From Candidatus Latescibacterota bacterium (GTDB taxonomy: Bacteria > Latescibacterota > UBA2968 > GCA-2709665): a stretch of 64,000 nucleotides of DNA. Where the stretch lies: assembly GCA_965205485.1 (NCBI GenBank), contig OZ242180.1:4160001-4224000 (forward strand). Direction: 5' to 3'. Of this stretch, positions 58,506 to 63,904 are shown one piece after another. Made by a program: the position numbers and the translations under genes. A model generated the notes under the pieces. The model did no database searches, had not been told where the DNA came from, and saw only the letters and a list, made by a program, of their open reading frames with translations. Within the stretch, counting starts at the first letter, position 1. Every line of letters begins with the position of its first letter.

Positions 58506-59105
58506 CTATTCACCGGTCGAACGCGGCAGGAATTCAGCCGCGCCCGCATGGCAGGTTGCGCAGGTGACCGGCGTCCCGTCCGATGTGACCAGCGATCCCT
58601 CGTAGTGGTCCATCATATACTTCGCCATCTGCTTATGCCTTGTGGGCTGTTCCGGCGCGAGGCGTCCGTCCTCCCGCCTGACGTGACAAAACTCGCAGTT
58701 TACCCCAAGCGCCGACTCAATCGCCTTCATCTTCCGGTAAATCTCCCTCCGGGGCATACGCTCGGACAGATTGGAGGGTTTGGCGTTGGTGAGGTCCCGC
58801 GGAATAAAACGGGCGTTGCCGCGGTGGCAGGACATGCAGTCCAGCGCCTTTCCGTCCGGTGTTCTCAGGCCGTCCACAAAATGAACCTTCATGTGGACGG
58901 CTGTCTGCTTAAACAACGAAGGCGCCTTGAAATCAGGTTTTCCATCCGGTCCGCGTACCGTGTGACAATGAGTACACCGTACCCCTAGTGACGCGGCAAT
59001 TCGTTTCATATTCTCTTCGCTCGTGTCCATCACGTGGTCCCGGTCGGCGTGCGCGCCTGCCGTCGCGACGCCCATTACGAGCAAAATCAGCAACAGTTTT
59101 GTCAT
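58506..59105 (-). CDS. Secreted tetraheme c-type cytochrome, PufC-like repeats
   Basis: GAGG RBS, signal peptide; CTHCH, CMSCH, CEFCH, CATCH; repeated MK.I...LGV.C..CH. Confidence 0.85.
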   Translation of the reverse strand: MTKLLLILLVMGVATAGAHADRDHVMDTSEENMKRIAASLGVRCTHCHTVRGPDGKPDFKAPSLFKQTAVHMKVHFVDGLRTPDGKALDCMSCHRGNARFIPRDLTNAKPSNLSERMPRREIYRKMKAIESALGVNCEFCHVRREDGRLAPEQPTRHKQMAKYMMDHYEGSLVTSDGTPVTCATCHAGAAEFLPRSTGE

Positions 59106-59206: not shown

Positions 59207-60568
59207 TCAGTTCACACCGCCGGCAATTACGGACCGTCCGTCCACGCCAACGGGAACGTCCAGACCGACGGCGTCAAAAAGCGTTGGAAACACGTCGATC
59301 AGCCGGATCTGTTGCGGTAAGTCCGCTTTGCGATTGATGAAGAACATCGCGTCAGAAAACGTATGGGTGCCATTCACGGGGCCGCGATCCATCAATACCT
59401 CCTTATCGAAGCCGCCCTTCAGATCGTACCCCTCCGCTGGCATGGCAATCAGGTCCGGCGCCAGGTCGAAGGCATCGCCGGCATAGAGTTCCTCGCGTCT
59501 GAAGACCCTGTGGATCACCGGTTCACCCGTTGCCGGATTCCGGATCTGCATCAGACCGTCCGCGATGTCCCGTCTAAGCGCCTCGTATTCGGCGCCTGGC
59601 TCCACTCGCCCCCCGCGCTCACGACCCCTAAGGGAAAGATAGATGCGCCCGGGCAACAGCGAATAACATTGCGTTTCGGGCGCCAGGTCGCGAAGCCCGC
59701 TGGCCGTTCGACCGTGGAAACGCAGGAAACCGGCCTGGCGCAACCAGTAATTCAGATGCACTTCATACTTCAACTTGCAGAACCCATGGTCAGATACGAT
59801 CATCAGCAACACGTTTTCGTCAAGCCGGGACGCGACCTCACCAATGGCACGGTCAACCCGGGCATAAAACCTGTGGAACCAGGGCAGATACGACTCGCTG
59901 CCGTCCTCCGCCAGACCCCACAGAAAATGGTGCAACCTGTCCGTTTCCAGGACGTGGGCGACAAACAGCCCCCATGGCTCCCGGTCCAGGTAGTGAAACA
60001 TCGCGTCGAACCGCCGTTCCATGGCCTGGAAGACATCATCCAGAAACCGCTCCCGGTCCCTGCGGGCAAGCCACGCGTCGATGTCAATCCGATATCCCAT
60101 CGCAGACAGCTCGCTCGCCACCGCGGCGGGATAGGTCGCCCCGTTCAGGTCCGGCGCCAGGAATCCGGAAATGAGAATTCCGTTCACCGCCCCTGGCGGA
60201 TAGGTCGTGGGTACGCCCATGGAAAAGACGCGCCGGCCCATCCGGCTGAAAATCTCGGTCCAGGTTCTTGCCCGCATCGTTCTGGCCGTCGGAATGTACA
60301 TTTCATGGGTGTCCGGTACACGATCTATAAAGCCATAGATATTGTGCCTGCCCGGATTGCACCCGGTTACCATTGACGCCCATGCGACCGACGATACCGT
60401 TGGCAGGACCGACTCCATTCCCGCCAGGCTTCCGGTTTGCAACAGCGCCGAGAAGTTCGGCATCCGGCCTTCGGCGACAAACCGGTTCATCAGACTGCAG
60501 GGCGTGCCATCCAGCCCGATAATCACAGCCCGTGACGGCACGTCGCGAAGGCGGTTGAGCGGAATCAT
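59207..60568 (-). CDS. Alkaline phosphatase superfamily / type I phosphodiesterase
   Basis: IIGLDG, P.VSSVAW.S..TG.NPG.H, DRLHH, VSDHGF, G.H. Confidence 0.88.
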   Translation of the reverse strand: MIPLNRLRDVPSRAVIIGLDGTPCSLMNRFVAEGRMPNFSALLQTGSLAGMESVLPTVSSVAWASMVTGCNPGRHNIYGFIDRVPDTHEMYIPTARTMRARTWTEIFSRMGRRVFSMGVPTTYPPGAVNGILISGFLAPDLNGATYPAAVASELSAMGYRIDIDAWLARRDRERFLDDVFQAMERRFDAMFHYLDREPWGLFVAHVLETDRLHHFLWGLAEDGSESYLPWFHRFYARVDRAIGEVASRLDENVLLMIVSDHGFCKLKYEVHLNYWLRQAGFLRFHGRTASGLRDLAPETQCYSLLPGRIYLSLRGRERGGRVEPGAEYEALRRDIADGLMQIRNPATGEPVIHRVFRREELYAGDAFDLAPDLIAMPAEGYDLKGGFDKEVLMDRGPVNGTHTFSDAMFFINRKADLPQQIRLIDVFPTLFDAVGLDVPVGVDGRSVIAGGVN

Positions 60569-60646: not shown

Positions 60647-60724
60647 TGGGGTGAGTGAGGGGACTTGAACCCCCGACCTCCTGGGCCACAACCAGGCGCT
60701 CTAACCATCTGAGCTACACCCACC
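60647..60724 (-). tRNA. tRNA-His(GTG)
   Basis: Encoded G-1, CCTGG-TTGTGGC-CCAGG anticodon arm, GTTCAAGTC, CCA. Confidence 0.95.
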
Positions 60725-60740: not shown

Positions 60741-60814
<74 letters not shown>

Positions 60815-60994: not shown

Positions 60995-61056
60995 TCAACC
61001 CGGAAAACCGGCACGGCCCCGGTGAGTTCATAACTTACGTATCGAGGAAACCCCGA

Positions 61057-62022
61057 ATGCGGACGTTCACTGCACTCTTGCTGTTCCTTCTGGCGGGATC
61101 AATTGCGACGCCTGCCGCCTATGCCCAGGGCGGTGTCAGCTGACGGCGCCCCGTGCTTCCGGGCGGAAGCCTGATGAAGAACAGTCTGGCTGTACAGGAT
61201 CAGTTGAAGTTCAGCGTACATTACGATTACGAATTCCTGTCCGACCCCCACTACGGGTCTCGCGCCATACCGAACGTCAATCGCGAGCGAACGGATAATG
61301 CCACAACCACCGTGTTCGCCGCCCTCGGCGTTACCGGGCACATCGGTGTTGCGCTCGCCGTACCCTTCCGGTCAGTTACCAACGAAAAGGTACTGTTGCG
61401 CGGACAGAACCCCAATCAGTATGAGGGCGGGAAGTATGTCAGGCATGCTTCCGGTCTCGGCGATATCGTGGTTATGTTGAATTACGCCGTACCCTTCGCG
61501 GCGGGCTTTCCCGGGATGCATTTCGGCATTGGTTTGAAGCTGGCAAACGGATCCGTCGATGCCAAAGACCATTACGGTGAGCGTTTTGCCGACAACCTGC
61601 AGATCGGGTCGGGAAGTGTGGACCCCATACTCGCGCTCAATATACTCCATCGCTTTGAAAGCCTGACGGTTTCTGCAAGCGTGTTTACGCGCATCACCTC
61701 AAGACAGAACATCTACGGCTACAAATACGGAAACGAACTGCACGCAAGCCTTTCCCTGGAGTACGAGAGCGAAGGCTGGCTGTACGGCGGAGTGAGCCTG
61801 AAAAACCTGATCACCTCGAGGGACCGTTATCAGTTCGGCCAGATAACCAGAGAACGCGGAGGTAAGTGGATGTATCTTTCGCCCGAATTGGGGTTCAACG
61901 TACTGGACAATCTGAGCGTTGAATTTCACCTTCCCGTTGTCGTATTCCAGAACGTGAACGAGAGCCAGCTGACGTCGGACTATCTGGTCGAGCTGAGCAC
62001 GTCATATGTATTCTCGCTCTAG
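61057..62022 (+). CDS. Outer-membrane beta-barrel channel (COG4313/MetA-pathway 'transporter'-like) with in-frame UGA at codon 29, putative selenoprotein
   Basis: ORF-track pieces 60949-61143 and 61153-62022 share one frame: MRTFTALLLFLLAGSIATPAAYA-QGGVS-[TGA]-RRPVLPGG...; barrel motifs SGLGD, GLKLANG, LQIGSGS.D, YKYGN, terminal SYVFSL. Confidence 0.75.
61155..61170 (+). promoter_or_regulatory. Candidate bacterial SECIS hairpin
   Basis: GCTTCC-GGGC-GGAAGC, stem starting after an 11-nt spacer from the UGA, loop begins with G. Confidence 0.55.
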
Positions 62023-62032
62023 GCGATCCGGC

Positions 62033-63109
62033 ATGCACCGAATTGGAAAGAAAAGCGGCCGGTTCATTTTTTTTGTCCTGTGGGCAACCCTTTTTGCGGC
62101 GGGCTGCTCGCTCTATCTTGACGATGAAGAGCCTGAGCAGTTCTACGAGATCGAAGATTTCGAAATCCTCGAACTCGGTGTGAATATCTCCGATATGGTC
62201 GTGGATCCGAACCAGCCATATCTTTATCTGGCCGATTACGGAAACAACCGGATACTCCGTATCCACCTTGGCAGACAGATGGCAGTAGACGGGAGCCTTC
62301 AGGTTGGTTCCCACCCCGTCGACCTCGACATCACGCCGGACCAGGGCCGTCTGGTGGTGGGTTTGAACGGCGAATCGAACCTCAAGGTCATCGACCTGAA
62401 TTCATTCGCCATTGTCAAGACGGTTCCTTATTCGCTGAATGACATTTCCCACATCGTCTGCGGAACCGACTCGATCGTATATGTTTCCTCTCTGGATGAA
62501 CCGCTGCTTATCGCCGTATCGATTGTGGATAAACTCGAAACGAGCGGGAATGTGCGCTCCGGCGCACTTCAGATGAACCACGGAAACCGAAAACTGTTTG
62601 TTGCCGCCAGGAACAACGTGCTGAAATACGACGCTTCAGGACAGTTTCCCTCTACCGAGACCACCTCCACCCGATTCAGTTTCTCAGCCAGGATCAACGA
62701 TTTCGTCATTGGCCCCCTCAACGAGCATCTATATCTGGGTCTGGAGGATCCGGAGGACCGCAGCCACGTTAAGGACCTCTGGTCGTTCAGCGCCGACGAC
62801 CTGACCCTGACGGGGAAATACGAAATCAAGTCGGCCGCACTGGGGCTCGCGCTGAGCCGCGACGGCCGCCGTTTGTTCGTTGCACCTACCGACGCCGATG
62901 AAGCAGGCGTCTTTATAGTTGAATTCGATACGCAGACCAAACTGGAGAAGAACTACTTCCTTGCGGCAGGAAACCTCAGAGAACGAGGCATCGCCATCGA
63001 CAACAACGATGAGTATCTGTATCTGGCGGTGTACACGCCTGGAGATGACGATACCTTCGAACCCTACAATATCGATTCCTACGACCTGCAGCGAATCAGG
63101 ATAGATTGA
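62033..63109 (+). CDS. YncE/YVTN-like beta-propeller lipoprotein
   Basis: FAAGC lipobox; repeats such as YLYLADYGNNRI, VGSHPVDLDITPD..RLVV, GLALSRDGRRLFV, GIAIDNNDEYLYLA. Confidence 0.8.
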   Translation: MHRIGKKSGRFIFFVLWATLFAAGCSLYLDDEEPEQFYEIEDFEILELGVNISDMVVDPNQPYLYLADYGNNRILRIHLGRQMAVDGSLQVGSHPVDLDITPDQGRLVVGLNGESNLKVIDLNSFAIVKTVPYSLNDISHIVCGTDSIVYVSSLDEPLLIAVSIVDKLETSGNVRSGALQMNHGNRKLFVAARNNVLKYDASGQFPSTETTSTRFSFSARINDFVIGPLNEHLYLGLEDPEDRSHVKDLWSFSADDLTLTGKYEIKSAALGLALSRDGRRLFVAPTDADEAGVFIVEFDTQTKLEKNYFLAAGNLRERGIAIDNNDEYLYLAVYTPGDDDTFEPYNIDSYDLQRIRID

Positions 63110-63175: not shown

Positions 63176-63904
63176 TCAGACGTCGCCCCCCTGAATTTCG
63201 CGAAAGTACCGGCACAGACGGGAGACGGGACACGCGCTGCAGGACGGATTCCTGGCGGTGCAGACTGTCTTCCCGAACTCAACCATGTTGATATGGAAAG
63301 ACCGGGCCTGGCCCTCCGGGATCAGAGGCGCGAGTTCCAGGTGTGCTCTTTCACGGCTGCATTTCGCTGAAACAACCCCCACCCGGCGAAGAACGCGATA
63401 TACATGGGTATCCACGGCGCACAGGTCGCGATCAAACGCAAAAGCAAGTACGATGTAGGCCGTCTTGATCCCGATGCCTCGATGTTCGGTCAACAGGGAT
63501 ACCGCGGTCTGAGTTGGCAGGTCCCGCAGGAAATCCAGGTTCAGGTTTCCGCGTTTTTTCTTCAGCCAACGCAGGAACGCCTGCATATTCGGGGCCTTTG
63601 AATTCACCAGTCCCGCCACCCTTATGGCGTCCTTCAGCTGTGCTTCGTCCGCGGCCATCACGTCGCCCCACTCCGGAAACCGCGCACGCATCCTGTCAAA
63701 AGCCCTGTCCCTGTTTTCGTCGTTCGTATTCTGGGACAGGATCGTCCGCATCAGTGCGTCGAGACCATCCGGCCGCGCGCGCTCAAGGTCCCATGAGGCT
63801 CCACCGAATGAACCGTCGAGTACGCCGGACATTTCAGCGATAACGGCGCCGCGTGTCTGAGGCAGCGGGCTTTCCCACCACGTCTCTATAGAACACATCG
63901 GCAT
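63176..63904 (-). CDS. nth: Endonuclease III family (HhH-GPD) DNA glycosylase with 4Fe-4S motif
   Basis: TILSQNT.D, GIGIKTA, AVDTHV.R, C-x6-C-x2-C-x5-C; start uncertain. Confidence 0.88.
   Translation of the reverse strand: MPMCSIETWWESPLPQTRGAVIAEMSGVLDGSFGGASWDLERARPDGLDALMRTILSQNTNDENRDRAFDRMRARFPEWGDVMAADEAQLKDAIRVAGLVNSKAPNMQAFLRWLKKKRGNLNLDFLRDLPTQTAVSLLTEHRGIGIKTAYIVLAFAFDRDLCAVDTHVYRVLRRVGVVSAKCSRERAHLELAPLIPEGQARSFHINMVEFGKTVCTARNPSCSACPVSRLCRYFREIQGGDV

Follow-up and report, generated by a model that had tools for sequence, protein, structure and literature searches.

Is an in-frame TGA that falls just behind a signal peptide the end of a gene, or a codon for selenocysteine (Sec)? 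Positions 61057..62022 raise this question in the window analysed here, a stretch of 64,000 nucleotides from contig OZ242180.1 of a Candidatus Latescibacterota bacterium. A first reading, made from the sequence alone, had proposed a read-through Sec gene for an exported barrel of the COG4313 type. That proposal is supported by conservation of the TGA, by covariation in the hairpin that follows it, by a match to Pfam family PF13557 and by a structural model. Judging from sequence comparison, we consider it very likely that 61057-62022 is one intact gene for an outer-membrane barrel selenoprotein, because the UGA is conserved, a SelB-type hairpin covaries behind it, the genomes concerned decode Sec, and sister clades have Cys at the corresponding place.

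The gene lies on the forward strand. A Shine-Dalgarno-like GAGGA (61044..61048) can be read off the sequence 8 nt ahead of the ATG at 61057, which opens a 23-residue signal peptide (61057..61125) ending in AYA, of the signal peptidase I type. The mature N-terminus follows as QGGVS (61126..61140), an instance of the motif AQ[GP]G[VI]S kept in relatives, and then comes the TGA (61141..61143), where column conservation predicts Sec as residue 29 of the precursor and residue 6 of the mature chain. An 11-nt spacer with the codons for RRPV (61144..61154) leads to a hairpin (61155..61170) resembling a Sec insertion sequence (SECIS). It consists of GCTTCC (61155-61160), the loop GGGC (61161-61164) and GGAAGC; covariation singles out the inner 5 bp as its conserved core, and the loop, opening with G, begins 17 nt past the TGA. 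On read-through the frame stays open to the TAG at 62020-62022, giving a precursor of 321 residues with no Cys. All of these features stand in the sequence as the sequence-only reading had described them.

Translation table 11 splits the region into a 64-codon open reading frame (ORF) ending at the TGA and a 289-codon ORF starting at GTG 61153. The downstream piece alone, begun at this GTG or at the ATG of M40, has no signal peptide, a point also made by the sequence-only reading. M40 is not conserved, other lineages reading SLLKYS or SLLQNS there, so that the family has no conserved restart codon. Database gene calls for the family mostly start downstream of the TGA and have 282 residues or fewer. 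The Sec-barrel family is very probably widespread, mostly marine and cut short by gene callers.

The TGA is unchanged in contigs from 4 independent studies; none of them shows the TGC, TGG or CGA that would have betrayed a misread codon. Two of these contigs span the whole barrel gene and carry 32 and 38 other differences, the nearest to the TGA being 61120 T>C and the synonymous 61146 G>A. When 61 related genomes were searched with the read-through protein, each of the genus's 15 genomes, among them that of the window, proved to have an ortholog (78-100% identity) and a paralog (about 52% identity), and 2 genomes of another genus had copies at 46-62% identity. Every one of these orthologs, paralogs and other-genus copies contains exactly one in-frame TGA. 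It stands at the same column in all 33 related-genome loci, flanked by AQ[GP]GVS and RRPVLPGG and preceded in 33/33 by an open, variable signal peptide.

A wider pattern scan, with one genome per species, returned 70 loci, the N-terminus being readable in 59. The 11 left out were L109, in which the N-terminal motif was not found, and L111-L120, which are distant, motif-less PF13557-like loci (L118 without a tblastn hit). TGA occupies the column in 59/59 readable loci and TAA or TAG in none, and a signal peptide precedes it in 58 of them; for the remaining one, L108, no start codon was picked. According to their record titles, the 59 loci come from Latescibacterota (some filed as Gemmatimonadota), KSB1, Calditrichaceae, Fidelibacterota, Marinimicrobia/Neomarinimicrobiota and the "FCB group". 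A scan of metagenome contigs added 71 loci, of which 65 were assessable, and again every one (65/65) has TGA at the column. Across loci the flanking motif is AQ[GP]G[VI]S-U-RRPxLPGG, that is, a conserved UGA with coding sequence on both sides. Since 19 of 58 full-length family genes also terminate in TGA, these organisms do not generally read the triplet as sense. The mature chain lacks Cys in 57/58 family members. Because the contigs of 4 studies agree and the column is conserved in relatives, the TGA is, on this comparative evidence, neither a sequencing error nor a pseudogene lesion.

The member with a Cys, L076 (G018:C408), ends early, at 287 residues. It lies in two frames, residues 21-270 and 267-321 matching separately, has its one Cys beyond residue 50, and comes from an 80%-complete metagenome-assembled genome (MAG). 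This copy is probably a frameshift or an assembly error.

The hairpin accompanies the TGA throughout. A stem-loop CTNCC-NGGN-GGNAG occurs 12 nt past the TGA in every locus, so that the combination of TGA and hairpin, which the sequence-only reading had named as the sign to look for in homologs, is kept in all loci examined. Covariation was assessed on 61 sequences (55 distinct) against 500 shuffles of the 3' columns. Hairpin cells are paired in 93.9%, compared with 87.8 +/- 0.9 in the shuffled columns, and the covariation score is 0.249 compared with 0.124; none of the 500 shuffles reached the observed value in either measure, a figure that is not a probability, the sequences being related by descent. 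Sliding the partner strand lowers pairing to 26-70%. The most telling position is the third pair (21:30), which among the 55 distinct sequences is CG in 33, UA in 18, UG in 2, AU in 1 and GC in 1, and is never unpaired. The metagenome set gives CG 28, TA 23, TG 7, AT 5 and GC 2. Both sides of this pair are synonymous third positions, of a Leu (CTN) and a Gly (GGN) codon, and all four Watson-Crick types as well as wobble intermediates are spread over different lineages. RNAalifold, unaided, predicts the identical 5 pairs. The outer sixth pair of the stem is kept in only 35/55 distinct sequences. These comparisons support the view that the hairpin behaves as a SECIS element.

Further support comes from the window's genome (G000), which has the machinery for Sec. 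One cluster at about 3.225-3.229 Mb holds selA (470 bits), selB (with the SelB wing domain) and a tRNA-Sec (73.4 bits, anticodon TCA); selD is found elsewhere, so that selA, selB, selC and selD, whose presence the sequence-only reading had left to be checked, are all there. Two genes of this genome outside the window each contain one in-frame TGA: selD itself (G000:C1:2394761-2395684, minus strand) and a gene for an fdhA-like molybdopterin enzyme (G000:C1:4123721-4124992, minus strand). Judged by their sequences, the products of both are selenoproteins themselves, and their elements serve as comparators. The selD element has a spacer of 10 nt, the stem TCAGTCC/GGACTGA and the loop GGTC, starting 17 nt after the TGA; the fdhA-like element has a spacer of 12 nt, the stem GTTGCC/GGCAGC and the loop GGTCT, starting 18 nt after it. 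The corresponding values for the barrel element are 11 nt, GCTTCC/GGAAGC, GGGC and 17 nt. All three share a CC-GGNC-GG apex, and the GGTC loop itself is present in 3 members of the barrel family. Bacterial SECIS elements, by criteria of the bSECISearch type, are recognised as a stem-loop directly past the UGA with a G in the apical loop and a spacing compatible with SelB. By comparison with selD (17 nt) and fdhA (18 nt) of the same genome, the barrel element has this form. Outside the genus, SelB was detected in 30 of the 32 genomes that carry the barrel gene; the other 2 are MAGs of 3.4 and 1.6 Mb with no completeness given.

If the residue is Sec, Cys might be expected in some relatives. Among 1.84 billion representatives, a profile search retrieved 2318 matches at E <= 0.001, and we inspected 70 proteins aligned at the column, namely the newly returned ones together with P0016 and P0017. 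CC stands right behind the signal peptide in 51/70 (e.g. AQGCCSGGTP) and CxC in 7/70 (e.g. SQSCSCGGPP), and the pair usually provides the only cysteines of the protein. Neither pair occurs in the other 12 proteins: 3 are W forms and 2 Ser forms, 4 more have P, S, E or A, the Cys pair is spaced more widely in 2, and 1 contains a single Cys. The AQTCSCAGAPLPGSL forms in 2 genomes of the window's own phylum place S-C opposite S-U when aligned on the shared P-x-LPG-SL, and in the profile alignment 5/6 other CSC forms fall on the Sec column, with the second Cys at the column. By Atlas clusters the Cys forms are mostly Bacteroidota. A Cys counterpart is thus found at the level of sister clades, where the CC or CxC of 58/70 distant relatives lies within 1-3 residues of the column. 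Within the close subfamily no Cys form was found, and the only non-TGA forms are Ser (P0016 and P0017); a metagenome scan with P0016 as query found no relative. The check for Cys in homologs therefore came out positive for the sister clades, with their CC and CSC forms, and negative for the close subfamily. On these alignments the Sec/Cys relation appears to lie between clades and not between close orthologs, which may be the reason why searches based on Cys pairs missed the family.

Nine database proteins (P0033, P0034, P0037, P0039, P0041, P0058, P0075, P0163 and P0187) have W at the Sec column. Over its first 50 residues P0037 equals the read-through of L090 except at the column, and P0033 differs from L089 in 2 residues. 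Because L090 and L089 carry TGA, we infer that the W forms are table-4 gene calls, on short AT-rich contigs, of TGA-bearing loci. The gene call of P0041 extends into the upstream ORF.

What kind of protein does the gene encode? PF13557 matches residues 93-291 with 26.4 bits (cut-off 22), a modest and partial match. An AlphaFold (AF2) model from 44 sequences is a beta-barrel with a mean predicted local distance difference test score (pLDDT) of 84 and a predicted template modelling score (pTM) of 0.79. Foldseek ranked FapF (5o65) first (E 1.3e-12, TM 0.61/0.66), followed by the COG4313 channel 4rl8; VIA-align ranked 4rl8_C first (Z 25.6, root-mean-square deviation 2.4 A, 255/268 residues, model 35-319 on chain 1-268) and gave Z 23.5 for FapF. 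A sequence-profile search of the PDB found no match at E <= 1. The model and the family match support a 12-stranded outer-membrane barrel of the COG4313/PF13557 type as the predicted product. Between the cleavage site and the first strand lie about 25 residues, which carry Sec and then RRPxLPGG; Sec is 6 residues ahead of residue 35, where the superposition on the N-terminus of Pput2725 (4rl8) begins. The sequence-only reading had placed Sec at mature +6, inside a plug of the lumen. Mature residue 6 stands; the plug placement does not follow from the model, in which the Sec segment has a pLDDT of about 50. A lipobox with Sec in place of Cys was also considered and rejected, by inspection only, as G-[VI]-S before U, itself preceded by Q or G, is unlike the lipobox consensus. 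It is further disfavoured by the hydrophobic core, whose end is separated from U by about 11 residues that include an AxA site.

The surroundings of the gene were compared in a sample of 26 loci across lineages. In the window, a gene for a beta-propeller lipoprotein (62006..63109, plus strand) overlaps the barrel gene by 17 nt, and a homolog lies directly 3' of the barrel gene in 24/26 loci. The lipobox Cys is the only invariant Cys in the family alignment of this lipoprotein, which gives weak matches to the Pfam families Lactonase and SGL. A gene for a TlpA/ResA-like thioredoxin-fold protein (WATWCxxC) is directly upstream in 11/26 loci, and 16/26 loci encode an FG-GAP/ASPIC-UnbV protein that bears a tail for type-IX secretion. 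Directly upstream of the barrel gene in the window are tRNA-His(GTG) (60647-60723) and tRNA-Arg(TCT) (60741-60814), both on the minus strand. A second Sec-barrel paralog of the same genome (L035; G000:C1:4798820-4799755, minus strand; 53% identity) shares the TGA column; directly upstream is a gene for a TlpA-like thioredoxin with WATWCKSC, and beyond it one for an NHL-repeat beta-propeller. Two Cys-form (CSC) barrels of the window's phylum, L128 (G125) and L129 (G124), are each followed by a DUF3179 gene (280 and 308 bits). DUF3179 is itself listed as a selenoprotein family in some organisms in a review table (PMC13188914). A relationship between DUF3179 and the downstream propeller lipoprotein was considered and rejected (hhalign probability 0.15%).

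Farther out, all on the minus strand, the window encodes a small multihaem cytochrome c-like protein (58506-59105) and an endonuclease III-like HhH-GPD protein (63176-63904), both from the family scan, and a type I phosphodiesterase/nucleotide pyrophosphatase (59207-60568, 142.7 bits). The phosphodiesterase gene recurs upstream in 3/3 same-genus loci sampled. Contigs of 3 other studies (X5, X6 and X7) begin or end exactly at the end of the barrel gene (62021-62022), with unlike sequence beyond; the junction between the barrel gene and the downstream gene seems to be a strain difference or a graph break.

Taken as a selenoprotein gene, the locus would work as follows. The ribosome would meet UGA at codon 29 of the barrel mRNA, where SelB carrying Sec-tRNA(Sec) would bind the hairpin 12 nt downstream (core CUNCC-NGGN-GGNAG), and Sec would be inserted without termination. 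The precursor would be exported by its 23-residue signal peptide, cleaved behind AYA and folded into the 12-stranded COG4313/PF13557-type barrel of the outer membrane. Sec would then be the sixth residue of the mature protein and the sole selenol or thiol of the chain, in the segment of about 25 residues ahead of the first strand.

Because a TlpA-like gene lies upstream and a gene for a propeller lipoprotein downstream, the surroundings suggest a periplasmic redox or ligand site. The N-terminal selenol could be the working group, binding a chalcophilic substrate or passing it on, or else serving as a redox latch for the N-terminal segment or, through an Se-S or Se-Se bond, as a gate of the channel; we offer this role tentatively, as somewhat less than an even prospect. 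In its reduced state it would act as a soft nucleophile, at the periplasmic face or in the lumen of the channel, on a metal or on a sulfur or selenium species. The TlpA/ResA-like thioredoxin would keep it reduced, and the downstream lipoprotein beta-propeller would be a partner. The sequence-only reading had cast Sec as a soft-metal ligand or redox gate; the TlpA-like gene beside the barrel gene in 11/26 loci speaks for such a part, and the role itself is still something we infer. More doubtful is a dedicated system in which the barrel, the propeller and the TlpA-like reductase capture and pass on a chalcophilic substrate through a covalent Se-X bond at the channel mouth. The substrates that such a system might handle, selenium or sulfur species or a soft metal, are named just as hesitantly.

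Several observations weigh against Sec at this codon or against its importance. The hairpin is short, with 5 conserved bp and a tetraloop, and is not the minimum free energy fold of the window sequence (-8.8 compared with -14.5 kcal/mol in another register). Folding of a single 40-nt stretch gives a z-score of -1.05, with 31/200 shuffles folding at least as well. Being non-significant and preferring the other register, single-sequence folding was dropped as evidence either way; as we read the alignments, the case for the hairpin is made by comparison and not by folding energy. Part of the conservation of RRPxLPGG may reflect constraints from the RNA element and not from what the protein does. 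SelB is present in 59/61 relatives whether or not they carry the barrel gene, and its co-occurrence was accordingly rejected as a discriminating test. No relative was found with one Cys exactly in the place of Sec and the rest of the motif unchanged. The clade of the Cys forms is farther removed (E about 1e-25 to 1e-18, about 30% identity), and the N-terminal alignment of the CC forms is short and uncertain by 1-3 residues. At the column, Ser stands in the close homologs P0016 and P0017 (about 50% identity), and S, E, A or P in the intermediate relatives P0083, P0100, P0114 and P0076; because such forms exist, the Sec residue appears to be dispensable for some family members. In the model, residues 21-40 around Sec have a pLDDT of 50-54. 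Finally, the window's locus has tRNA genes upstream where many other lineages have the TlpA-like gene.

Part of this evidence would suit a gene in which the UGA is mainly a selenium-dependent gate on expression. SelB would still insert Sec, translation would abort after 28 codons when selenium is lacking, and the chemistry of the residue would be secondary. The UGA comes very early, which makes an abort cheap, the Sec segment is placed without confidence in the model, and this explanation is kept alive because the barrel exists without Sec or Cys (the Ser forms P0016 and P0017 and the S/E/A/P forms P0083, P0100, P0114 and P0076). Against it, the residue belongs to the mature protein and not to the discarded signal peptide, the sister clades keep CC or CxC at this spot as their only cysteines (58/70), and a gene for a thiol-disulfide oxidoreductase is a recurrent neighbour, the latter two pointing to chemistry at the site. 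We regard a gate of this kind as improbable. Still less probable is read-through independent of SelB, in which the hairpin would stimulate near-cognate decoding of UGA as Trp, Cys or Arg and no selenium would be involved. The short hairpin, the 9 database proteins with W and the fact that our evidence is drawn from sequence would all allow it. The W forms, however, match TGA loci (P0037 with L090, P0033 with L089) and are best taken as table-4 calls, and in apex and spacing the hairpin agrees with the SECIS elements of the genome's selD and fdhA. SelB is found in 30/32 carriers outside the genus and in 18 TGA-sharing carriers among the relatives, only TGA is used (59/59 and 65/65 loci), and the Cys-bearing sister clades fit Sec.

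There is hardly any likelihood left for a nonsense pseudogene, a sequencing error or two genes, the last being a leader of 28 codons and a restarted barrel gene. The database gene calls that begin downstream (282-residue forms) look like the product of such an arrangement, but loci from different genera and with different phylum-level labels, at 46-96% protein identity, preserve the TGA, the reading frame and the upstream signal peptide, and the contigs of 4 studies agree on the TGA. Lacking its signal peptide, a barrel would have no route to the outer membrane, and the presumed restart Met is unconserved.

If the selenoprotein reading is right, a whole protein family of marine and sponge-associated bacteria, abundant and for the most part uncultured (by record titles Marinimicrobia, Fidelibacterota, Latescibacterota, KSB1 and Calditrichota), has been systematically mis-annotated, either truncated at the UGA or read as Trp. 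It would be a family that searches for Sec/Cys pairs tend to miss, since Cys forms are absent from the close subfamily. A single selenol in an oxidising compartment, the outer membrane or the periplasm, encoded beside a gene for a thioredoxin-fold protein, would offer a testable handle on the selenium chemistry of the envelope. The family is also linked to a larger set of Cys-pair barrels with no assigned function. In selenoproteome counts from ocean metagenomes it would be a non-trivial addition. Should the selenol also prove to be the working group, the barrel would be the first example of catalytic or ligand chemistry by Sec in an outer-membrane channel, and the Bacteroidota Cys-pair barrels would be its sulfur-based counterparts.

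The sequence-only reading knew of no described selenoprotein family of this type, and our searches agree. A scan of NCBIfam, with the GSU2204, TonB receptor, GOS_B and GOS_C models included, gave 0 families at E <= 0.01 for the barrel protein and two relatives (P0001, P0033 and P0016), and no match for 10 Cys-form or other relatives. A literature search did not find PF13557 paired with selenocysteine. The accessible part of the table in a 2026 review of prokaryotic selenoproteomes has no PF13557-type selenoprotein (PMC13188914), although one may hide in survey supplements as a "hypothetical protein". The barrel family is very probably a new selenoprotein family within a known kind of system.

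Selenoproteins of the outer membrane are not without precedent. In the part of that table available to us, two are listed, the MtrB-type barrel GSU2204 and the FCYXU TonB-dependent receptor (PMC13188914), and since both contain Sec, an outer-membrane selenoprotein is not in itself new. As far as that source describes them, GSU2204 (MtrB/PioB-type, NF041027) and the FCYXU receptor (NF049945) are, like the protein described here, exported Sec barrels of the outer membrane; they belong to other barrel families, and here Sec stands alone at the mature N-terminus, with no CxxU. The SECIS of E. coli fdhF and its like carries a bulged U. The barrel hairpin has none, as the sequence-only reading had observed. 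With the SECIS elements of selD and fdhA it shares the position directly past the UGA, a loop at 17-18 nt, the CC-GGNC-GG apex and G at the first loop positions; unlike them, it has 5 conserved bp in the stem rather than 6-7, and its loop is usually NGGN, not GGUC(U).

Among barrels, the PF13557-like Cys-pair (CC/CSC) forms belong to the same barrel family (profile E 1e-25 to 1e-18) and have a thiol motif behind the signal peptide. They differ in having two Cys and no RRP motif, and in the two examined the next gene encodes DUF3179, not a propeller lipoprotein. FapF (5o65), the secretion channel for functional amyloid in Pseudomonas, is a 12-stranded barrel of the same structural class; unlike the present protein it has no Sec, identity is 13-15%, and there is no Fap operon here. 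The closest structural precedent is Pput2725 of Pseudomonas putida F1 (4rl8), a 12-stranded barrel in which some 14 N-terminal residues occlude the lumen from the periplasmic side (PMC4493636). The Sec barrel resembles Pput2725 and the COG4313 family in its Pfam match above the gathering score, in the superposition of 12 strands and in an N-terminal segment ahead of the barrel. It differs in sequence (about 10% identity) and in the length and content of that segment, here about 25 residues with Sec and RRPxLPGG, Sec lying N-terminal of the part aligned to the N-terminus of Pput2725. The gene context differs as well: the Sec barrel keeps company with a thioredoxin, a lipoprotein propeller and cargo of the type-IX secretion system, and not with the degradation of aromatic compounds.

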